Part shown: piece after piece, positions 1,473 to 52,013 of the stretch
How positions within the stretch are numbered: the stretch's first letter is position 1
Layout: every line of letters starts with the position of its first letter
From: Candidatus Daviesbacteria bacterium GW2011_GWA1_41_61
GTDB lineage: Bacteria; Patescibacteriota; Microgenomatia; Daviesbacterales; UBA10151
Assembly: GCA_000997385.1 (NCBI GenBank)
Contig: LCBT01000002.1
Coordinates: 6,315-70,314, forward strand
Direction: 5' to 3'
DNA length: 64,000 nucleotides
Notes under the pieces: model-generated
What the model was told of the DNA's origin: nothing
The model's input: only the letters and a program-made list of their open reading frames with translations
The model's database searches: none
Made by a program: the position numbers and the translations under genes

Positions 1473-3581
1473 ATGGAGTTTCTTAGTTGGTATGTTATCT
1501 TTTTAGCTTTAGGGCTGATCTTTTGGCCCATCACTACTTTACTTTTCCCCTCTTTTTTTGATAAAGGCTATGCTTTATCCAAAATTTTAGGCCTGCTTAT
1601 TTTAGGCTACAGCATGTGGCTTTTTTCCAGTTTAAAACTTCTCCCCTTTAATACCTTCTCCTTAATTGTTCTTTTGGGAATTTTTTTGCTCATCAATACT
1701 GTTTTAGCTTACAAAAAACAGCTCACTCCCCAACTTTTAGGCAGTGTTAGAATTATTATTTTTGAGGAGCTGTTATTTTTAGGGGGATTAATTTTTTGGA
1801 GCTATATCAAAGCTCATGAACCTTCCATCCATGGTTTGGAAAAGTTTATGGACTTTGGCTTTATCAATTCGAGCTTAAAAGCTGAGTTTATGCCTCCGAA
1901 AGATATCTGGTTAGCCCCTTTTTCTATCAACTACTATTATTTTGGTCATTTTGTAACAGCCCTGCTGACCAAAATATCAGGCATTAATTCAGCTGTGACC
2001 TACAACCTGATGCTTTCAACCCTCTTTGCCCTCACTTTAAGCGGAGGATTTTCTTTAGGAGCTAACCTTTATCATTTGTTTATAGCCCATTATAAGTCAC
2101 TCTCACTACATACTACACGCTACATACTACTATCTGGTTTACTGGCAGCTTTTCTTCTCACCTTAGGAGGCAATTTGCAGACTATCTATGCTTTCTTCCA
2201 AACCTACACTCCGGCAGACAGTCCCGTGCCTTTTTGGACTCTTCCTTTCCAGTTTAACTTTAACGGTTACTGGTACCCTAATGCTACCAGATTTATCCCT
2301 CTTACCATTCATGAGTTCCCCATCTACTCCTTTGTGGTCTCTGATCTACATGGCCATGTCTTAAACATCCCCTTTGTTTTACTGCTCATTGCCTTACTTA
2401 TTAAGATTTTCTCTTCTTCTCTACTATCTGCTACTTACTACTTACTACTTAGCTTACTCATCGCCATTTCCCTGATGACCAATGTTTTAGACGGACCGAT
2501 CTATCTTTTGGTGATCTCCTCAGTGTTATTTGTTAAAAATCTCCAAACTCGCCCTTTTTTGACTGCAGCTTTACACACAGCAAAAGAAGGGGCAATCATT
2601 ATTTTTTTAGCAGCTATTTTTTCCCTGCCTTTTTGGCTGGCCTTTAAACCTTTTGCCTCGGGGGTAGGCATGCTCTGTGCTCCTCAATTTTTAATCAATC
2701 TGGGCAAACTGGGACCGTTTATCTTTGAAGCCGACCATTGTGCCAGATCCCCTCTTTGGATGCTCGCGATCCTTTGGGGCTTCCCCTACTTTATAATTAT
2801 AGGTTTTATCTTCTTTGTTATTAAAGGACTTAAGTCACTTAGATCACTTAATTCTACCGATCTCCTAGTTCTCACTCTAGCCTTGGCAGCTACCCTACTG
2901 ATACTGATTCCGGAGTTTTTCTATGCCAAAGACATCTACCCTGCCCACTACCGGGCTAACACCGTCTTTAAATTTGGCTATCAGGCCTTCATTATATTAG
3001 GCCTTATTTCGGGCTACATAATTACCCGCCTTATCACTCTTACTAAAAAACCATATCTGTTTCTTGCACCATGTTTTCTGTTGCTTGCTTTTATTGCCAT
3101 CTATCCTTATTTTGCTATCAACTCCTACTACGGAGAGTTAAAAACTTATCGTGGTCTGGATGGTTTAAGTTACCTTAAAGATCTTTATCTAAATGATTAC
3201 CAGGCCATTCTTTGGCTGAGAAACAACATTCAGGGCCAACCGGTGATTTTAGAAGCCCAAGGAGATTCATATACAGATTATGCCAGAATTTCTTCTAACA
3301 CCGGTCTGCCTACTGTCATCGGCTGGCCGGTTCACGAGTGGCTGTGGAGAGGCAGTTATGATGAGGCCGGTAAAAGATCAGCTGAGGTGACCACTCTTTA
3401 TGAAAGTCCAGAGATTAATCTGACCCAAAGTTTAATTCAAAAATACAACATCTCTTATGTATTTATAGGTGATTTAGAAAAGCAAAAGTATACCAATCTA
3501 AATGAAGAAAAATTTTCCCAGTTAGGCAAAATAGTCTTCCAGTCAGGAGAGACCAGAATTTACCAACTGAATAATAACTAG
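1473..3581 (+). CDS. Large polytopic membrane protein, DUF2298-like (GT-C-like) with C-terminal soluble domain
   Basis: 702 aa with >12 predicted TM helices plus a ~120-aa hydrophilic C-terminus. It sits adjacent to and co-oriented with the GT39-like gene. Confidence 0.4.
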   Translation: MEFLSWYVIFLALGLIFWPITTLLFPSFFDKGYALSKILGLLILGYSMWLFSSLKLLPFNTFSLIVLLGIFLLINTVLAYKKQLTPQLLGSVRIIIFEELLFLGGLIFWSYIKAHEPSIHGLEKFMDFGFINSSLKAEFMPPKDIWLAPFSINYYYFGHFVTALLTKISGINSAVTYNLMLSTLFALTLSGGFSLGANLYHLFIAHYKSLSLHTTRYILLSGLLAAFLLTLGGNLQTIYAFFQTYTPADSPVPFWTLPFQFNFNGYWYPNATRFIPLTIHEFPIYSFVVSDLHGHVLNIPFVLLLIALLIKIFSSSLLSATYYLLLSLLIAISLMTNVLDGPIYLLVISSVLFVKNLQTRPFLTAALHTAKEGAIIIFLAAIFSLPFWLAFKPFASGVGMLCAPQFLINLGKLGPFIFEADHCARSPLWMLAILWGFPYFIIIGFIFFVIKGLKSLRSLNSTDLLVLTLALAATLLILIPEFFYAKDIYPAHYRANTVFKFGYQAFIILGLISGYIITRLITLTKKPYLFLAPCFLLLAFIAIYPYFAINSYYGELKTYRGLDGLSYLKDLYLNDYQAILWLRNNIQGQPVILEAQGDSYTDYARISSNTGLPTVIGWPVHEWLWRGSYDEAGKRSAEVTTLYESPEINLTQSLIQKYNISYVFIGDLEKQKYTNLNEEKFSQLGKIVFQSGETRIYQLNNN

Positions 3582-3829
3582 CCAAAATGTTGCCGTTTTC
3601 TTTCTCTCACCAATCTTCGGGCACTTTTAATAATGTGAAACATACCAAACCCAGAAGCAGCTAACAAAAACCATCCATTATTGTTAAAACCTTGGGTAAA
3701 GGCATCGTGTGCCCGTATTGCCGGAATAGATGTTAAGATGGCACCTATAATAATCTCCACTTTGGGATTCATCGGGCGGTAAATTGCTGGCAGCTGATCA
3801 TGGAAAGAAGGCTCTCTTTCACCATTCAT
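3578..3829 (-). CDS. small hypothetical membrane protein
   Basis: ORF only; contains a hydrophobic stretch. Confidence 0.2.
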   Translation of the reverse strand: MNGEREPSFHDQLPAIYRPMNPKVEIIIGAILTSIPAIRAHDAFTQGFNNNGWFLLAASGFGMFHIIKSARRLVRERKRQHFG

Positions 3830-3876
3830 ATTTATTTGACTGGTATTCTATTACTTGAAGTGTCTATTTGTAAAGG

Positions 3877-3933
3877 TTATAACTTTTCTACTTCCTCTAC
3901 CGTGTAAATCCAAATTTGGATGGTTCTTGTAAT
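3877..3933 (-). pseudogene. displaced remnant of the yjbQ 3' end (encodes ITRTIQIWIYTVEEVEKL*)
   Basis: Minus-strand translation gives ITRTIQIWIYTVEEVEKL-stop. This closely echoes the C-terminus of the intact YjbQ gene 1 kb away (QRTVQIWIYPVEGIEEL-stop). Confidence 0.55.
3908..3920. repeat. 13-nt core ATCCAAATTTGGA (palindromic with following T), copy 1; candidate att core
   Basis: Identical 13-mer at 4907-4919, embedded in ~45 nt of ~70% identity (accgtgtaaATCCAAATTTGGAtggttctt vs accggatagATCCAAATTTGGAccgttctt). Confidence 0.6.
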
Positions 3934-3962
3934 AAGTTTATACTCATTAACCAATTCTAGCG

Positions 3963-4820
3963 TTATTGATAAAGGACGTAAGGAAAAATTTTAATGACAG
4001 CTCTGTCCAAAACTCTTAAAAGTGTGGGTGTCTCCCTTACTGAGTGTGCCCACTCCCGCAACTCATATCTATCCACAAAACCATTTTCCCGTAAAGTAGC
4101 AGGCAATTCATCAATCATGCTGTTAGTCCACTCCCTAATCTGCGCAGGTAAACTTCCCAGTTCCTTTTGGGTTGCTTGATAACTATAAAGCATACTGAGA
4201 AGTTGGTACTTCGTATCTGCTGCTTGTAAAGGAAGCTTGTCTTTATTCATAGAAAAAACACTAACTCTACCCTTGTTAAGTCTCACCCCATCCCAAAGTG
4301 CCTCAAAACCCACTCCCCTTCTTTTAACCACCCCCTTGATTGTGTCAAATTTGCGTAGCTTAACATTAAAAGAACCAATATCTACTAATGTAATTGCTGA
4401 AAATTCAGGAGATCTTGGCGCAGTAATAAGAACTTCCAGAGTCGTATTTGCCTCTTGCAAACCAATCCCTGAAGTTTGTGTCCTTCCCCAATCAGCTCTA
4501 CTAATCTGAGTTAGATAGGGAAATGGGTCGGAACAGAGACGCAATCCTCTGCCTGATCCACCCAACTCACTATCGCCAAAGGAAATCTTTCCCTCTTTCC
4601 AAACCTCATCACGAATCACCTCTAAGGCTTCATCTACTTGGAGTTCTTTTAAAATTTCCTGGGTTCTGGTAACGTCTTTTTTTGTTTTTGACTCTTTTGA
4701 CTCTTTTGTCGATTGGCGGGCCTGAATTTTTGCTTTTAATTTGACCCGTTGCTCAGCTAAAGCTAAAGCTTGAGCTTGACGATAATTATTTGCCGTCCTC
4801 TCTAAATCTTCTAATCTCAT
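3963..4820 (-). CDS. hypothetical 285-aa protein carried by the insertion; candidate novel recombinase/homing factor (function unknown)
   Basis: Charged, coiled-coil-like N-terminus. No RHRY (Tyr-recombinase), Ser-recombinase, DDE, HUH, DEDD, HNH, GIY-YIG or LAGLIDADG signature recognizable by eye. Confidence 0.45.
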   Translation of the reverse strand: MRLEDLERTANNYRQAQALALAEQRVKLKAKIQARQSTKESKESKTKKDVTRTQEILKELQVDEALEVIRDEVWKEGKISFGDSELGGSGRGLRLCSDPFPYLTQISRADWGRTQTSGIGLQEANTTLEVLITAPRSPEFSAITLVDIGSFNVKLRKFDTIKGVVKRRGVGFEALWDGVRLNKGRVSVFSMNKDKLPLQAADTKYQLLSMLYSYQATQKELGSLPAQIREWTNSMIDELPATLRENGFVDRYELREWAHSVRETPTLLRVLDRAVIKIFPYVLYQ

Positions 4821-4875
4821 AGTGAGAATATTATATACCCAAAGTCAAGATAGGGATGTAGGGTAGAAACAAAGC

Positions 4876-5409
4876 CTAAAGTTCCTCTATTCCTTCCACC
4901 GGATAGATCCAAATTTGGACCGTTCTTTGCCGAATAGGGTTTTTACCTGTGCCATCCCGGCCGTCAAATTCCAAAGCTGCCACCTCTTGGTATTTTCCCA
5001 AAACAGGTTTCCCATCTTGGATAGGAATAAAAACTGAAGGGTGACCATAAAGCATCGACCTGATATGGGAAGGGGCATTATAATCTTCATCAATCTCATT
5101 ACAAAAAGGGTTGTCCTGGCAACGGTGGGTCCAGTCACAAGTAGGATAGGCAAAACCCTCCTTTTTAGCCTGCCAAGCCCTTCTGTCAGTAGGAACTAAG
5201 TGCAGGGCAAAGTTTAACATATCTTTTAACAGGTTTGGCTCTGAAATTTCCTGGATCACTACAGTCAAGGTTGTATGCTTAGAGTTAACCACCACTATCC
5301 CCTGTTTCACTTTAGACTTTTTGACAGCTTCTTTGACCTCATCAGTGAGATTTTTAAAATGAGCGTACTCTTTAGAAGGAAACTTGATCTCTTTTAAAAA
5401 AGCTTTCAT
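4876..5409 (-). CDS. yjbQ: YjbQ/UPF0047 family protein (secondary thiamine-phosphate synthase-like); start at MKAFLKEIKF
   Basis: VVVNSKHTTLTVVIQE and NAPSHIRSML motifs match UPF0047. Starting at the ORF-track start (5451) would overlap the divergent sigma factor gene. Confidence 0.55.
   Translation of the reverse strand: MKAFLKEIKFPSKEYAHFKNLTDEVKEAVKKSKVKQGIVVVNSKHTTLTVVIQEISEPNLLKDMLNFALHLVPTDRRAWQAKKEGFAYPTCDWTHRCQDNPFCNEIDEDYNAPSHIRSMLYGHPSVFIPIQDGKPVLGKYQEVAALEFDGRDGTGKNPIRQRTVQIWIYPVEGIEEL
4907..4919. repeat. 13-nt core ATCCAAATTTGGA, copy 2 (inside the yjbQ 3' coding end)
   Basis: Direct repeat of 3908-3920. It lies in the codons for VQIWIY of YjbQ. Confidence 0.6.
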
Positions 5410-5429: not shown

Positions 5430-6011
5430 ATGAATATGAGAAAAACCCCACGTTTTTCCCCTCAAAGATTGGCCAAAAAACATGAGAGATTTGCTGCTCT
5501 TTATAAAAACTTAGCCCTCCCTTTAACTAAGTTTCTAGTAAAACATTCGGGAGGTGATCAAGAAGCTGCGGAAGAAGTTTTTTCCCAAACCATTGTGGCT
5601 GCCTGGAAAGGCTGGCATACCTTTGAACACCGCAGCAGCTACTTTACCTGGCTTTGCCGTATCGGATTAAACAAAATTGCTGATTATTATAAAGATCAGG
5701 TGAATATTAGGTCTAAGTTTGTCTTCCCCACTCTTTCCGCTTGGGCCAATATTGAAGATAAAAGTTTATCTTTGGAAGAGAAGACGGCTTTGGATGAGCT
5801 TCGAGAGTCAGTCAGAGAGTGTCTGGAACTTTTACCGGAGGAAAAAAGAAAGCTGTTATATCTTCGTTTCTGGCAGGAGATGACTGTTAAGGGTATGGCA
5901 GAGGTGTTGGGAATCTCTGAGAGGGCAACTGAAGGTAAACTCTACCGGGCCAAATTAGCTTTAAGAGAGGTTTTACAGGTCAGGAATCCCGAGATTATTT
6001 CTTCCTACTGA
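5430..6011 (+). CDS. RNA polymerase sigma-70 family ECF-type sigma factor
   Basis: Region 2 (FSQTIVAAWKGWHTFEH...YFTWLCRI) and region 4 HTH (MTVKGMAEVLGISERATEGKLYRAKLALRE). Confidence 0.6.
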   Translation: MNMRKTPRFSPQRLAKKHERFAALYKNLALPLTKFLVKHSGGDQEAAEEVFSQTIVAAWKGWHTFEHRSSYFTWLCRIGLNKIADYYKDQVNIRSKFVFPTLSAWANIEDKSLSLEEKTALDELRESVRECLELLPEEKRKLLYLRFWQEMTVKGMAEVLGISERATEGKLYRAKLALREVLQVRNPEIISSY

Positions 6012-7029
6012 CCAGAAAGTCTGCCATCTGATAAAGAAGAAATCTCTTGTCCTCGGCAATATCCATTGTTTTAACAACTGCCTTGGCTTCTTCTACTAAC
6101 TGGGCAGCCTTCTTTTGGGAATATTCTAAAGCTCCGGTATCTACAAACACCTTTTTAATTTGTTCTAGTTCCTGCTGGCCAATCTTCCCTTTACCATAAT
6201 AGCTATCTAACACCTTCTTCTTCTCTGCAGAGGCTTTTTTCAGGGCCTGAATAAACAGCAATGTATTTTTTCCCTCTTCAATATCTGAGGTGACAGACTT
6301 GCCCAAAGTTGCCTCATCACCAAAAACTCCCAAAATATCATCCTGGATCTGAAAAGCTATTCCTAAGTTACTGCCAAACTCCGCAATATCATCAATAAGT
6401 TTTTTATTGGCTCCCCCAACTATTGCTCCTAAATGAAGCGGCCCACTGATAGTATAACGGGCGGTTTTTAAACGAAAGACTGCTAAGGCATCCGCTTCCC
6501 TTGCTGAATCTTTTTCATGAGGCAACTGCACATCAAGCATCTGCCCTAATGCCGTATCGAGCATGGCTTGAGCAAATAAAGAGAGGGCCTGATTTTTTTC
6601 CTGATCAGGGAAATTGCTCTGAGAAATTGATCTCACAGCCAAAAAGTAACCAATATCGCCCAAGCAAATAGTCTGAGAGATGGCGTAATGATCCCCACCT
6701 AAGGCCTTATAAACGGTTGGTTTACCTCTTCTTAAGGGAGAGAGGTCAATAATGTCATCATGAGCTAGGATTGCAGTCTGGAAGATTTCAAAGGCCACAG
6801 CCGCCTTGAGGATATCCGCATTTTCCTTCCCTCCCGCCATCTCATATCCCAGCTTAACCAAAGCTCCTCTCAACCTTTTTCCACCTTCTGAAGCCTGGAT
6901 AAAAACTTTGTTCAAACTTATAAGTTTGGGACTCACTGAAGCTACTTCCTTACTCCAACTTTGGAAGAACTTCTCCATCTCCTCATTAATTTCAGAAGCA
7001 GCTGTTTCAAGGTAAGTAAGGAAATCCAT
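5995..7029 (-). CDS. polyprenyl diphosphate synthase (FPP/GGPP synthase family)
   Basis: Two Asp-rich motifs: LAHDDIIDLSPLRRGKPT and FQIQDDILGVFGD. Confidence 0.7.
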   Translation of the reverse strand: MDFLTYLETAASEINEEMEKFFQSWSKEVASVSPKLISLNKVFIQASEGGKRLRGALVKLGYEMAGGKENADILKAAVAFEIFQTAILAHDDIIDLSPLRRGKPTVYKALGGDHYAISQTICLGDIGYFLAVRSISQSNFPDQEKNQALSLFAQAMLDTALGQMLDVQLPHEKDSAREADALAVFRLKTARYTISGPLHLGAIVGGANKKLIDDIAEFGSNLGIAFQIQDDILGVFGDEATLGKSVTSDIEEGKNTLLFIQALKKASAEKKKVLDSYYGKGKIGQQELEQIKKVFVDTGALEYSQKKAAQLVEEAKAVVKTMDIAEDKRFLLYQMADFLVSRKK

Positions 7030-47616: not shown

Positions 47617-47688
47617 GTTGCGGGGGTTGGATTCGAACCAACGACCTTCAGATTATGAGCCTGACGAGCTACCACTGCTCTACCCCGC
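47617..47688 (-). tRNA. initiator tRNA-fMet(CAT), no encoded CCA
   Basis: CGCGGGG...CCCCGCAA acceptor with a C1·A72 mismatch. Near-identical to the E. coli initiator in the acceptor, D and T arms, with anticodon loop CUCAUAA. Confidence 0.6.
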
Positions 47689-47739
47689 GGTAACTTAGGT
47701 ATTATACACCCCCAGCTTGATTAATCAAAGCCCTCGATC

Positions 47740-48201: not shown

Positions 48202-49071
48202 ATGGTTAGTTTATCAGATGCCAGACAACAATTTATCGGACACCTTAAAGGTAAAAGCCGCTCTTCAGCTACTATCTTAGCCTATGGCAAAGACATTGAG
48301 CAACTAGTAGACCATTTAAAGAAAGAGGGGGTCACTGATCCTTTAGAAGTCACCACAGACCAGATGAAAGACTTTATGGCTAAGTTGGCCAAAGAAGGGT
48401 ACACTCACAAATCCATCTCCCGCAAAACCAACTCTACTAAAACCTTTTTTAAATTTTTAAAAATTTCCGGGATTATTGAATCAGACCCGGCTACCGCCTT
48501 AGAACACCCCACCTTTGAAAATAAACCACCCAGAATTCTAACTAAATTGGAGTACCGGGCCCTCCGGGATGCTGCTCGGGGTGATATCAGGATGTCAGCT
48601 ATTATCGAGTTGCTGCTGCAAACTGGGGTGAGGATTGGCGAACTTTCTAAAATCACCACTCCCGATATTAACTTAGAGGAAGAAAACCCCACCCTTTATA
48701 TCCGACCCACGGAAGGATCTGTGGAAAGAACCATTCCTTTAAACAAACCTGCTGTTGAAATTTTAAAAAAGTACCTGGAGATCAGGCCAAAAACTCAAAA
48801 TAAAACCCTTTTTATTACCAAAACCGGCAGACCATTACTAGTTAGAAACATCAGAACGGCTATTGACCGCTACTTTAAATTAGCTGGCATTAGTGGGACT
48901 AAGGTCAATGATTTAAGACATACTTGGGTGACCCATCAACTGGCCTCAGGTATCTCTTTAACTTTAGTTTCTAAGATGGCCGGACACAAAAGAGTCTCCA
49001 CTACGGAAAGATACCTTCAATATATCCCCCAAAGAACTACTGAGGACAAAGTTAAACTAGAAGAACTTTAA
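48202..49071 (+). CDS. tyrosine site-specific recombinase (XerC/XerD/phage-integrase family)
   Basis: N-terminal SAM-like core-binding domain. Catalytic R...HxxR...Y: LRHTWVTHQL...GHKRVSTTERYLQ. Confidence 0.65.
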   Translation: MVSLSDARQQFIGHLKGKSRSSATILAYGKDIEQLVDHLKKEGVTDPLEVTTDQMKDFMAKLAKEGYTHKSISRKTNSTKTFFKFLKISGIIESDPATALEHPTFENKPPRILTKLEYRALRDAARGDIRMSAIIELLLQTGVRIGELSKITTPDINLEEENPTLYIRPTEGSVERTIPLNKPAVEILKKYLEIRPKTQNKTLFITKTGRPLLVRNIRTAIDRYFKLAGISGTKVNDLRHTWVTHQLASGISLTLVSKMAGHKRVSTTERYLQYIPQRTTEDKVKLEEL

Positions 49072-49334: not shown

Positions 49335-49362
49335 CTCCTTTGATGAGGAAACCGACCTGGGT

Positions 49363-49434
49363 GGGCGGACCAGGACTCGAACCTGGAACCAAGATTGTAT
49401 AAGAATCCCGCGCTACCATTGCGCCATCCGCCCA
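49363..49434 (-). tRNA. tRNA-Ile with anticodon UAU (TAT), no encoded CCA
   Basis: GGGCGGA/TCCGCCC acceptor, GCGC/GCGC D-stem, anticodon stem GGATT/AATCT with loop CUUAUAC (U33, UAU, A37), and T-arm CCAGG-TTCGAGT-CCTGG. Confidence 0.55.
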
Positions 49435-49667: not shown

Positions 49668-52013
49668 TTATAGTTTAGCTCTTTGGTTAATTTCTGCTTC
49701 CACCTCTGCCACATCCCGCCCATAGGTCAGCCTGGACAACTCCTTAATCGCCTGAGCTATCTCCGGTTTCTTCATGGCATTCCATGCCTTAAAATCAATC
49801 CCCACCTTCATGGAAAAAGGTGGCACTGGCTCTCCTTTAACTTGGGTTTTGACATAAACATTCCAAGCTTCAATATTAACTAGGTCTTGCTCGCTAAATG
49901 TTGGGGCAAATTCATGTTGTAAAAAGTTAGCATCGGTTACACCGATACGGAAAGATATTTGAGTCCCCACGTTCCCAAAGATGGCATTTTTAATATCCTC
50001 CGGCATCTGGCCGATAAATTGGTTGGCTACAATAAGATTTAATTTATACTTTCTGGCCTCAGATAAAATGGTGGCAAAGGTATCGGTGGCAAAATTTTGG
50101 AACTCATCAACATAAAGGTAAAAAGGGCGCCGCTCCTGCTCCGGTATATTGACCCGGGACATCGCTGCTGCTAATATCTTTGGTACCAAGACCAACCCTA
50201 AAAAGTTAGAGTTTTCCTCCCCCATCATCCCCTTGGAAAGATTGACAATTAAGATCTTCCCCTGATCCATAATCTGGCGGAAATTAAAAGAGGATTTTCC
50301 TTGACCGATGATATTGCGCAGCATCCGGTTGGTGACAAAACGGCCGAATTTAGAAACAGTATAGTCTAAAACCTCCGATTTATGAAAATCCGCGGTATGG
50401 GCAATTTGATCTGTCCAATAGCGGCGCACCACCGGATCAGTCACATGAGGCAAAAGCTCTTTGACAAACTCCGGATCCTGCATAATGCGCATTACCTCCA
50501 CAAAAGTATTTCCGGGGACAGCCATGACCGTGAGCATAGCATTTCTGACCCCGTGTTCAAAACGGGGGCCGATAATACCGGTTTTATTGGGATCGTAGAG
50601 TTTATACATTAAACCGATAATCTCAGCAGTAATAAAGTGTTTCTCATCTTCGGTTGAGGCTTCTAACATGTTCATACCAAAAGGCCTTTGGGCATCACCG
50701 GGGTTAAAATAAATCACATCTTTGGCCCGGTGCGGCGGGATTAAAGACAGCATCTCCTCGGCCGCGTCACCGTGAGGATCAACAAAAGCCAAACCTTTGC
50801 CGGCTAAAATATCTTGCAGCATCAAAGTCTTCATTAAAGTAGTTTTACCGGTACCGGTGCGTCCAATGATATACATATGTCTTTGGCGGTCTTCTTCAGC
50901 GATATAGACCGGTCTTTCCAAGCCCCTAAAGACAGATTTACCCAAGTAAAGCCCGGAGGTAGGGATCTTTTCCGAAGCTGGAGCAGCTCTAGCCGGTAGC
51001 CAAGTAATATGGGGAGTAGTAACTGATTTATTAGGAAAGTGATAAATAGTGGCAATCTCATCAGCTGTCAAAACCGGCAGCTTAGCAAATTTCGGCAGAT
51101 AGCGGTAGATTAAATCAGTCATAAAGCCTTTCTCGCCGGGAACCTTGGCTCCGGAAAAGCCGTTGTAAGGGCCGGAGAATTGTTCAAAAACCGCCTTAAT
51201 ATTTGACAGATGAGCTTTGGAGTTGTCTTTGGAAGTTGAAGAGATCGCTGCCCTTAAAACAACATTAAACCCCGGCCGGGCTAACTTCCCTTCCACTGCC
51301 TCCAGTTGTTTGGCATCAGGGGGAGGTTTGGGCGGACTGTCCGGTTTGCCCGGCTCTTTTTCTTTCTTCAGCCATTTTTTACCGCCATCTTTCCACTTAT
51401 TATCAGCTGGAGCTATAATCATCTGCAATAGCGCTCCCTCCTCTGGTTCCATCTTGGCCAAAGCTGCAGTTAAAGAAGAAAGTGGATCAGTGGGTAAATC
51501 ACGATAGGTTTTAAGCGGAAAATAGTTAGCAGCCCGCAGGATATATTGAGTATAAGCTGTTTGACCATCGTCGGTAAAAATATTATATTCCGGAACTTCT
51601 TTAATGGCGGCATCAGGGTAAGCGCCATGAATCTGCTTTTCGATTAGATCCCGCAACGATTTATGAACACAGATCAAGAAGCGGATTGACTCATGTAAAG
51701 CCACAATCTCAAAAGCAATCTGGGCTTGAGGTTGATGATTTAAAAAGCCAGTACTTTTTTTTATAGAGTAAAGGGCGGAGAAAAACTGCTCCATAGCATC
51801 AATTTTAATTTCGTTGTCCCGCGGTACCTCCACCTGTAAGATGACCGACTCTAAGGAGTATTTCTCCCGATCCCGGCTGCGGTACCAACCAACAATAAAG
51901 GGAACCAAAAAAGCCAGTCCTAAAATCACTACCGCCAAGACCACTAAGAGGATTATTCCTCCCGTGAGCAAATCTAATAAATCTGGTTGTGCAGCCTGAA
52001 CGCCAACTTCCAT
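49668..52013 (-). CDS. VirD4/TraD-like type IV coupling protein family ATPase (FtsK/HerA superfamily P-loop NTPase) with N-terminal TM anchor
   Basis: TM helix; Walker A IIGRTGTGKTT; Walker B LYVDEFQNF; LIVANQ...NVGTQISFR. Confidence 0.45.
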   Translation of the reverse strand: MEVGVQAAQPDLLDLLTGGIILLVVLAVVILGLAFLVPFIVGWYRSRDREKYSLESVILQVEVPRDNEIKIDAMEQFFSALYSIKKSTGFLNHQPQAQIAFEIVALHESIRFLICVHKSLRDLIEKQIHGAYPDAAIKEVPEYNIFTDDGQTAYTQYILRAANYFPLKTYRDLPTDPLSSLTAALAKMEPEEGALLQMIIAPADNKWKDGGKKWLKKEKEPGKPDSPPKPPPDAKQLEAVEGKLARPGFNVVLRAAISSTSKDNSKAHLSNIKAVFEQFSGPYNGFSGAKVPGEKGFMTDLIYRYLPKFAKLPVLTADEIATIYHFPNKSVTTPHITWLPARAAPASEKIPTSGLYLGKSVFRGLERPVYIAEEDRQRHMYIIGRTGTGKTTLMKTLMLQDILAGKGLAFVDPHGDAAEEMLSLIPPHRAKDVIYFNPGDAQRPFGMNMLEASTEDEKHFITAEIIGLMYKLYDPNKTGIIGPRFEHGVRNAMLTVMAVPGNTFVEVMRIMQDPEFVKELLPHVTDPVVRRYWTDQIAHTADFHKSEVLDYTVSKFGRFVTNRMLRNIIGQGKSSFNFRQIMDQGKILIVNLSKGMMGEENSNFLGLVLVPKILAAAMSRVNIPEQERRPFYLYVDEFQNFATDTFATILSEARKYKLNLIVANQFIGQMPEDIKNAIFGNVGTQISFRIGVTDANFLQHEFAPTFSEQDLVNIEAWNVYVKTQVKGEPVPPFSMKVGIDFKAWNAMKKPEIAQAIKELSRLTYGRDVAEVEAEINQRAKL

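Follow-up and report, generated by a model that had tools for sequence, protein, structure and literature searches.

A duplicated yjbQ tail and an apparent accessory-gene cassette at a recurrent insertion point in Candidatus Daviesbacteria

Candidatus Daviesbacteria bacterium GW2011_GWA1_41_61 is a groundwater bacterium of the candidate phyla radiation (CPR). The stretch of its genome analyzed here (the window; 64,000 nucleotides of contig LCBT01000002.1, positions 6,315 to 70,314) contains an insertion of about 1 kb next to the 3' end of yjbQ, a gene of the UPF0047/secondary thiamine-phosphate synthase family. The insert holds a single gene, orf285, and is flanked by two copies of the end of yjbQ, an arrangement that is confirmed by the present analysis. 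The insert is most likely a small non-autonomous accessory-gene cassette (orf285 and its own upstream signals) that lies at a recurrent insertion point at the yjbQ 3' end. A previous inspection of the letters of the window without database searches (the sequence-only reading) had drawn attention to the site and had taken the insert for a candidate self-sufficient integrative element whose protein would be a new type of recombination or homing factor.

The local gene order is a sigma-70-family gene on the plus strand, divergent from yjbQ, followed by yjbQ, orf285, the tail fragment and orf83 (all on the minus strand) and a convergent DUF2298 gene. The target gene yjbQ (4876-5409, minus strand, 177 amino acids) is intact and is identified by Pfam, NCBIfam and its orthologues. 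Its product scores above the curated thresholds of both family models (PF01894, E=1e-26 and 93.8 bits with a cutoff of 27; TIGR00149, 85.5 bits with a cutoff of 67.75). The resident tail of the gene (4871-4930, minus strand, attL-like) ends in frame with ...RQRTVQIWIYPVEGIEEL and a stop codon at 4876-4878. A second in-frame tail, ...KLITRTIQIWIYTVEEVEKL followed by a stop codon, is found on the same strand at 3877-3933. This displaced, attR-like copy (3872-3933, ...ITRTIQIWIYTVEEVEKL, stop codon at 3877-3879) possesses neither a start codon nor a gene body. Together the tails form a direct repeat of 57 nt (3872-3928 and 4871-4927) that is 72% identical with a spacing of 999, and no direct repeat within 8 kb in the 64-kb window is longer. 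The insertion between two gene-end copies thus lies where the sequence-only reading had placed it.

As had been proposed, the displaced fragment is truly a YjbQ tail. Its protein score is 60 (BLOSUM62, 20 amino acids, stop codon in register) whereas the best chance score in six-frame scans of 91 loci is 36. A gapped alignment hints that the fragment extends further upstream (LEL.. versus ALEF..), but this signal is within chance. The identical 13-nt stretch noted by the sequence-only reading, ATCCAAATTTGGA, is likewise present in both copies (3908-3920 and 4907-4919), where it encodes part of V-Q-I-W-I, and occurs nowhere else in the window. At up to one mismatch, 0.40 matches to this 13-mer are expected and none of 100 shuffles reaches the observed count. 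The same structure is present in at least eight independent assemblies of the organism, and misassembly through shared k-mers is excluded since the longest identical run between the repeat copies does not exceed 14 bases.

Related loci show that the site is variable. YjbQ searches yielded 10 close loci from genomes and 80 loci from metagenomes (given L numbers here), with orthologues that are 55-92% identical. The order of yjbQ and a convergent DUF2298 gene is found in 13 distinct loci, and the DUF2298 gene (1473-3581 in the window, plus strand; a membrane protein gene assigned by Pfam) is conserved and bounds the variable spot on its distal side. Five of the 13 loci (L009, L013, L026, L028, and L031) are empty sites in which the stop codons of yjbQ and the DUF2298 gene are 0-15 nt apart; uninterrupted alleles of this kind had been anticipated from the window alone. 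The other eight are occupied, with gaps of 302 nt (L034), 388 nt (L027), 449 nt (L010), 619 nt (L018), 904 nt (L014), 1298 nt (the window), 1332 nt (L012), and 1386 nt (L011, which equals L025). The cargo of the occupied loci is mutually unrelated, except for a gene pair common to L011, L014, and L029. The cargo of L012 includes a protein with a PaaX/Cas2-like domain and several other cargo open reading frames (ORFs) have no family matches. No recombinase gene is recognizable in the cargo of L010, L011, L012, L014, or L018.

Displaced tails were sought at every locus with the last 20 residues of the YjbQ encoded there as the query. They are present in four occupied loci only (the window, L010, L011/L025, and L012) with scores of 58-86 against a background of at most 36. 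The displaced tails measure about 57 nt in the window, 74 nt in L010, 48 nt in L011, and about 63 nt in L012, and all of them contain V/I-Q-I-W-I and terminate in register at a stop codon. The displaced tail of L010 directly adjoins the DUF2298 gene, exactly like the native tail in empty sites, and in L011 the sequence past the displaced tail is homologous to the native yjbQ downstream sequence in L027. Therefore, the displaced copy is the original gene end at these two loci. A duplicated DUF2298 tail was searched for and never found in the loci. The window, L011, and L012 have extra cargo on the distal side of the displaced tail.

The gene pair common to three Daviesbacteria is a small toxin-antitoxin-like cassette (L011 5598-6147, L014 5575-5739, and L029 1229-1388) that begins immediately behind the yjbQ stop codon, at an identical point in all three, and precedes unrelated distal genes in L011 and L014. 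Its two genes have weak matches to ribbon-helix-helix antitoxins and RelE/YafQ-like toxins that are below the Pfam cutoffs, and a TTGAAA-17-TATTAT sequence precedes the ATG by 8 nt. The copy in L014 is truncated, and the nucleotide identity between L011 and L014 (77%) is similar to that of the yjbQ bodies. The tail duplication, the distal position of older cargo, and the position of this cassette therefore indicate that insertion is tied to the yjbQ tail, additive, and polar. The last ~75 nt of yjbQ are thus a recurrent one-sided insertion point.

The differences between paired tails are mainly synonymous. The window tails have 8 synonymous and 6 replacement differences (proportion of differing synonymous sites, pS, 0.81; ratio of the nonsynonymous proportion to it, pN/pS, 0.19) and those of L012 have 11 and 6 (pS 0.96, pN/pS 0.14). 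In L010 the copies are identical over 53 nt (from -29 to +15 around the conserved stretch) and then diverge abruptly, so that every difference falls within the last seven codons, with a pN/pS of 0.19. Neutral decay of one copy after an in-place duplication gives P=0.045 for the window, 0.005 for L012, and 0.05 for L010. The tails thus look like the ends of two long-separated functional yjbQ alleles, suggesting that the incoming DNA carried a yjbQ tail. The L011 copies are 85-89% identical and the displaced one has a W to R change at the invariant tryptophan, which fits a younger event followed by apparent decay. Over the four loci, paired tails are 61-89% identical, and the longest identical runs are 8-14 bases in the window and L012. 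The window gene is also a mosaic. Its body is closest to L010 throughout (81-86%; 66-74% for the L018 body), whereas its tail, taken from slightly ahead of the conserved stretch up to the stop codon, matches L018 at 90% identity and the L010 resident tail at only 65%, and the resident tail after the 13-nt core is 88% identical to the L018 tail.

The cargo gene orf285 (3963-4820, minus strand, 285 amino acids), whose product is annotated in the source organism as a hypothetical protein, has no family match in Pfam, NCBIfam, PHROGs, or PADLOC. Homology search yields two close relatives, and an exhaustive HMMER search yields 57 family cluster representatives, nearly all of 250-300 amino acids (typically ~270), that align end to end. 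An AlphaFold2 model built from a 30-sequence alignment has a predicted local distance difference test score (pLDDT) of 89.9 and a predicted template modeling score (pTM) of 0.81, while a 2-sequence alignment gave a pLDDT of 37. The model has a long N-terminal helix of 57 residues, a sheet of six strands, and a helical C-terminal bundle. Foldseek searches of the PDB and BFVD with this model return no match with an E value under 0.06 and no recombinase or nuclease fold, and family and fold searches detect no homing nuclease domain (LAGLIDADG, HNH, GIY-YIG, His-Cys box, PD-(D/E)xK, or EDxHD). The sequence-only reading had seen no signature of a known recombinase or homing nuclease in this gene and was right in this respect; the cryptic fold of such an enzyme that it envisaged is absent from a confident model. 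The orf285 family is better treated as an uncharacterized CPR accessory protein with a well-predicted and apparently new fold.

Relatives of orf285 sit in unrelated contexts, including type IV secretion genes (L021), a position after murB in another Daviesbacteria (L105), and positions between housekeeping or transport genes (L022, L023, L024, and L106). None of these six genes is surrounded by duplicated ends of neighboring genes, and they have no common neighbors. No relatives were found in phage, plasmid, and viral-contig collections (tblastn and a two-sequence alignment search). The other insertions at the yjbQ tail, three of them with a displaced tail, carry unrelated cargo without the orf285 protein. 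Because there is no recombinase or nuclease fold, the relatives elsewhere lack duplicated ends, and the other inserts lack the protein, orf285 appears to be passenger cargo and not a new recombinase. A homologue with 54% identity is found at L001, a locus unrelated to this one; what the two loci have in common is limited to the ORF and a 30-nt block upstream of it (4821-4851, minus strand). The blastn homology begins at 4851, 25 nt downstream of the yjbQ stop codon. The block contains TATAAT at 4830-4835, 9 nt before the ATG (compared by eye), and may be promoter-like; a sigma-70 scan did not call this site because TTGACT is just 7 nt from TATAAT.

How the cassette reached the site is less certain. 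The favored explanation, to which a probability of roughly 0.4 is given, is recombination by a site-specific recombinase that acted in trans or was encoded on a larger element since lost. Incoming DNA would carry a short yjbQ tail (~50-75 nt, from another functional allele) along with the cargo, and this tail would recombine with the resident tail in an additive, Campbell-type manner. Thus yjbQ would keep a complete reading frame, one tail copy would be displaced to the far side of the cargo, and older cargo (orf83 in the window) would be pushed away from yjbQ, resulting in the order gene, tail, cargo, tail, older cargo. The enzyme, of whichever kind, would not be encoded in the cassette and orf285 would be a passenger, so the insert would be analogous to a cis-mobilizable element (CIME) or a decayed island; the intermediate may have been circular or one-sided. 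The attL/attR architecture put forward by the sequence-only reading is reasonable insofar as gene-end copies flank the insert, but the recombination factor that the insert was supposed to encode is unsupported.

A site-specific recombinase is favored because each of the four duplications lies within the final 75 nt or less of a single gene, because the tails are too diverged for efficient recombination by RecA (61-89% identity, runs of 8-14 identical bases in the window and L012), and because integrase-less elements flanked by attachment (att) sites are known and yjbQ is a hotspot elsewhere. A RecA crossover needs a minimal length of homology, and the tails here provide too little for an efficient crossover, a point in favor of either site-specific or short-homology recombination.

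Several observations weigh against this explanation. No integrase is found at or near the site in the 13 syntenic loci, and no integrase-bearing element is seen at the yjbQ tail in ~90 loci, a limited sampling. Viral contigs contain no attP-like copy that exactly matches the 20-nt degenerate pattern GTCCAAATYTGGATYTAYCC; this pattern covers the resident tails of L010, L011, L012, L014, and L018 and neither tail of the window, so diverged copies would be missed. The four cassettes have no arm motifs in common outside the yjbQ-like segment, and the left limit of the displaced tails is not constant, lying 0, ~10, ~20, or 29 nt ahead of the conserved stretch. The scan detects no displaced tail in the occupied loci L014, L018, L027, and L034. 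The abrupt end of the 53-nt identity in L010 is more like the boundary of a homologous crossover or gene conversion than a fixed site-specific crossover. The contigs of the organism all carry the insert and include neither a population polymorphism nor an excision product. Additionally, the L010 displaced native tail is 82% identical to the resident and 67% to the displaced tail of the window; which window tail is native is ambiguous, as the tails are too short for such an identity comparison.

The same architecture could also arise with no dedicated recombinase, from taken-up or circularized Daviesbacteria DNA that integrates by RecA- or short-homology-dependent recombination. The V/I-Q-I-W-I coding stretch would then be the best microhomology, and tail-flanked cassettes would later move by double crossover. 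This account, the chief alternative, is possible, if on the unlikely side. The 53 identical nucleotides and sudden divergence in L010 are typical of a homologous exchange or conversion tract, both tails look like the ends of functional chromosomal alleles, and the mosaic affinity of the window resident tail suggests exchange between lineages. The lack of an integrase at any locus and of common arm motifs agrees with it as well. Moreover, the 13 identical bases encode part of V/I-Q-I-W-I, of which Q165, W167, and I168 are invariant among the orthologues. The shared core is simply the part of the tail in which the coding sequence is most strongly conserved; purifying selection is enough to explain its identity, which needs no explanation as a recombination site. 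However, the segments of homology span just 48-74 nt and are 61-89% identical, with identical runs of only 8-14 bases in the window and L012, and such segments make a very poor RecA substrate. Random donors should leave long yjbQ fragments, whereas all four are at most 74 nt, and the duplication occurs on the yjbQ side only and never on the equally conserved DUF2298 side.

An integron-like form of gene capture at the yjbQ tail is improbable. Promoter-bearing, tail-tagged single-gene cassettes would be added serially without an integrase in cis, through a host or unrecognized recombinase, for example an Xer-like one.

Duplication of the target site is a poor explanation. A staggered cut ~50-75 nt apart, of the kind made in transposition or by Cas1, would have been filled in and the distal copy would have decayed. 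The L011 copies, at 85-89% identity and with W to R in the displaced one, are what decay predicts, and the L010 insert is directly flanked by the 53-nt identical duplication. The duplications, however, differ in length (48, ~57, ~63, and 74 nt), and synonymous sites in the window and L012 are near saturation with few replacements (pN/pS 0.19 and 0.14). The last 7 codons in L010 differ mostly synonymously, so the resident tail there would be a foreign functional tail, and the insert borders have no terminal inverted repeats and the insert no transposase.

The proposal of the sequence-only reading, a self-sufficient minimal integrative or homing element in which the 285-amino-acid protein is a new recombinase or nuclease acting on a palindromic core, is very improbable. 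It draws on the facts that orf285 is the sole gene between the repeats, that the protein has no known function and a fold without a close match, and that one family member lies beside type IV secretion genes. In that case (L021 646-5652) the family member P0004 directly adjoins VirB4-like, TrbL/VirB6-like, and TrbC/VirB2-like genes, an association that may be incidental as other members lack it. Both genomic predictions of the proposal fail. Insertions without the protein occur at the same tail, the six family loci elsewhere show no trace of duplicated ends, and L001 shares the upstream block and ORF but neither the yjbQ tail nor other flanks. The family has the motifs RDEVWxEG, SLPxQIRxW, and ELRxWxHxxRG, and its invariant residues (W74, G77, L95, P225, and P240) are not a catalytic set, with no acidic residue, histidine, serine, or tyrosine among them. 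The palindrome, which was thought to suit a dimeric DNA-binding or DNA-cleaving protein, is perfect over 14 nt at the displaced copy (3908-3921) but is imperfect in most orthologues (CAAATCTGG, CAAGTCTGG, and similar) and is broken in L010, L011, and L012 (all CAAATCTGG), which also received insertions. It is thus a by-product of codon choice for V/I-Q-I-W-I and lends no weight to a site for a dimeric enzyme. In a weaker variant of the proposal, the orf285 family may have an unrecognized role in DNA transactions. Chance similarity or an assembly artefact, for which the short repeat length might be cited, has a negligible probability given the tail score of 60 with the stop codon in register, the shuffles, the identical structure in independent assemblies, the same architecture in three other species, and a repeat too diverged for k-mer confusion.

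Known classes of element were also compared with the insert. A transposon or insertion sequence is rejected on the absence of a transposase and terminal inverted repeats and on duplications of 48-74 nt that differ in length. A homing endonuclease gene is rejected since there is no nuclease family match, no nuclease fold, and no conserved catalytic residues. An integron cassette array is rejected since the upstream neighbors are yjbQ and a sigma-70-family gene, no Rfam element is found, and the repeat is a coding tail. For an autonomous integrative element, the gene-end repeat and empty sites are present but no integrase gene lies inside.

Beyond the displaced tail, a sigma-70-like promoter match (TTTACA-18-TAGAAT, 3845-3874, minus strand; a consensus match only) begins immediately past the stop codon of the tail and lies upstream of orf83. 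The small ORF orf83 (3578-3829, minus strand, from the ORF list) has two hydrophobic segments and overlaps the DUF2298 stop codon by 4 nt. It has no tblastn match in any of the 90 related loci and nothing significant in Pfam, NCBIfam, PHROGs, or PADLOC. It looks like a second, more distal cargo, an older cassette without a displaced tail of its own. The insert shows no sign of being compositionally foreign, with a G+C content of 0.37-0.43 both inside and outside. Around the site, Rfam detects no RNA gene either in the window or in the seven related loci that were scanned, and therefore no tRNA or transfer-messenger RNA (tmRNA) integration target is hidden there. On the other side of yjbQ, the sigma-70-family gene (5430-6011, plus strand) sits between a polyprenyl synthase gene and yjbQ. 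It is missing in L010 and L011/L025; thus the upstream side of yjbQ is also variable. The YjbQ protein of this clade (177 amino acids) is longer than the 117-position Pfam model, and the orthologue alignment has an invariant Cys/His/Asp-rich segment, HRCQDNPxCNEIDEDYNAxxH, inside the domain that may be a metal-binding insertion.

Two of the related loci have cargo of uncertain nature. In L012, ~500 nt between the displaced tail and the DUF2298 gene (5700-6208) are apparently relatively G+C-rich, contain only implausible ORFs, and have no Rfam or Pfam match; this is possibly a decayed gene or an uncharacterized RNA. The L018 cargo (5555-6150, minus strand) consists of several short frame-shifted ORFs, fragments without a Pfam match. 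Their wording (..NHIHAIIVL.. and ..WQCNFFEHIIMNEAEL..) tentatively suggests IS200/RAYT-type Y1 transposases.

The window also encodes an Xer-like tyrosine recombinase far from yjbQ (48202-49071, plus strand; Phage_integrase E=7e-32 and an N-terminal SAM-like domain). The gene is flanked by tRNA-Met (47617-47689) and tRNA-Ile (49358-49434), has a DivIC-like gene and a gene for a VirD4/TraG-like coupling protein as neighbors, and has an ORF at 49668-52013 (minus strand) in its surroundings. A nearby 85-amino-acid ORF has a sub-threshold match to EF-Tu domain 2 (23.8 bits, cutoff 30.3). The recombinase gene was found by phmmer with XerD and gamma-delta resolvase queries. A regular-expression screen of the window for recombinase motifs found nothing and is unreliable, since it missed this gene. 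The gene could be a housekeeping Xer or part of an integrated element, and only in the loosest sense is its product, which nothing links to yjbQ, a candidate for an enzyme acting in trans at the yjbQ site.

The genomes of CPR bacteria are very small; descriptions of mobile elements in these bacteria are scarce, and little is known of how they exchange genes. At the locus described here, one gene tail received unrelated cargo of one or two genes at least four separate times in different species; the empty sites allow comparison and the displaced tails record the events. A recombinase acting in trans, if true, would give the phylum a new attachment site together with a class of minimal cassettes, while plain recombination, if true, would mean that microhomology within a conserved coding sequence can serve in effect as a site of integration. 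Integron-like capture, if true, would provide a simple route of accessory-gene exchange in tiny CPR genomes.

Elements that are flanked by att sites and lack an integrase are known from other bacteria, and CIMEs are defined as att-flanked elements devoid of integration and transfer genes (PMC5704250). The insert in the window likewise has att-like flanks and no integration or transfer genes, as do decayed islands and CIMEs such as those beside ICESt1/ICESt3 at fda in Streptococcus thermophilus, where new arrivals can also accrete at the gene-proximal site. CIMEs, however, derive from identifiable integrative and conjugative elements or integrative and mobilizable elements, for which an element with the cognate integrase exists. 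No such element was found at the same site in the 13 syntenic and ~77 more distant yjbQ loci, a weak negative given the limited sampling. The units here are also of single-gene size (0.45-1.0 kb between tails) and their host is a CPR bacterium. The ssrA-specific islands of Dehalococcoides keep an integration module in 16 of 31 cases (PMC3146451). They resemble the present locus in that one conserved attachment point has varied cargo and about half of the islands lack the module. In contrast, their target is a tmRNA gene, they measure ~10 kb or more, and the module is syntenic where present, whereas the target here is a protein-coding tail and no integration module is seen.

In Vibrio cholerae, yjbQ is an insertion hotspot for mobile elements (PMC12082036). 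The same gene family thus marks a recurrent site for accessory and defense cargo in an unrelated phylum, although the islands there are much larger and integrase-bearing elements are reported. Integrative mobile elements exploiting Xer (IMEXs) carry no recombinase, use the XerCD/dif system of the host, and are flanked by two copies of the site after integration. They are similar to the proposed cassettes in lacking a recombinase and depending on a host enzyme, but they use dif near the replication terminus, and the yjbQ tail does not have the dif-like two arms around a 6-8 nt spacer.

The displacement of a gene end has a parallel in the rhs and cdiA polymorphic-toxin genes, which have displaced "orphan" C-terminal modules downstream. 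There too, an incoming gene end plus a downstream gene displaces the old end and leaves a series of tail fragments, every one of which has a short region of homology to the main gene in front of it. However, the ends of rhs and cdiA are large toxin domains with immunity genes that are selected for diversity, whereas the end here is a tail of 16-24 codons from a housekeeping-type protein, with cargo that is not related to that tail. Integron cassettes are likewise small, mostly single-gene units that are added in a polar manner with a repeated recombination sequence between units. Integrons depend on IntI, attI, and attC hairpins, none of which is present here; instead, the cassettes apparently have their own upstream signals and the repeat is a coding gene end. 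The locus is thus a case of small integrase-less cassettes that accrete at a gene tail in a CPR lineage, a phenomenon known elsewhere in kind.

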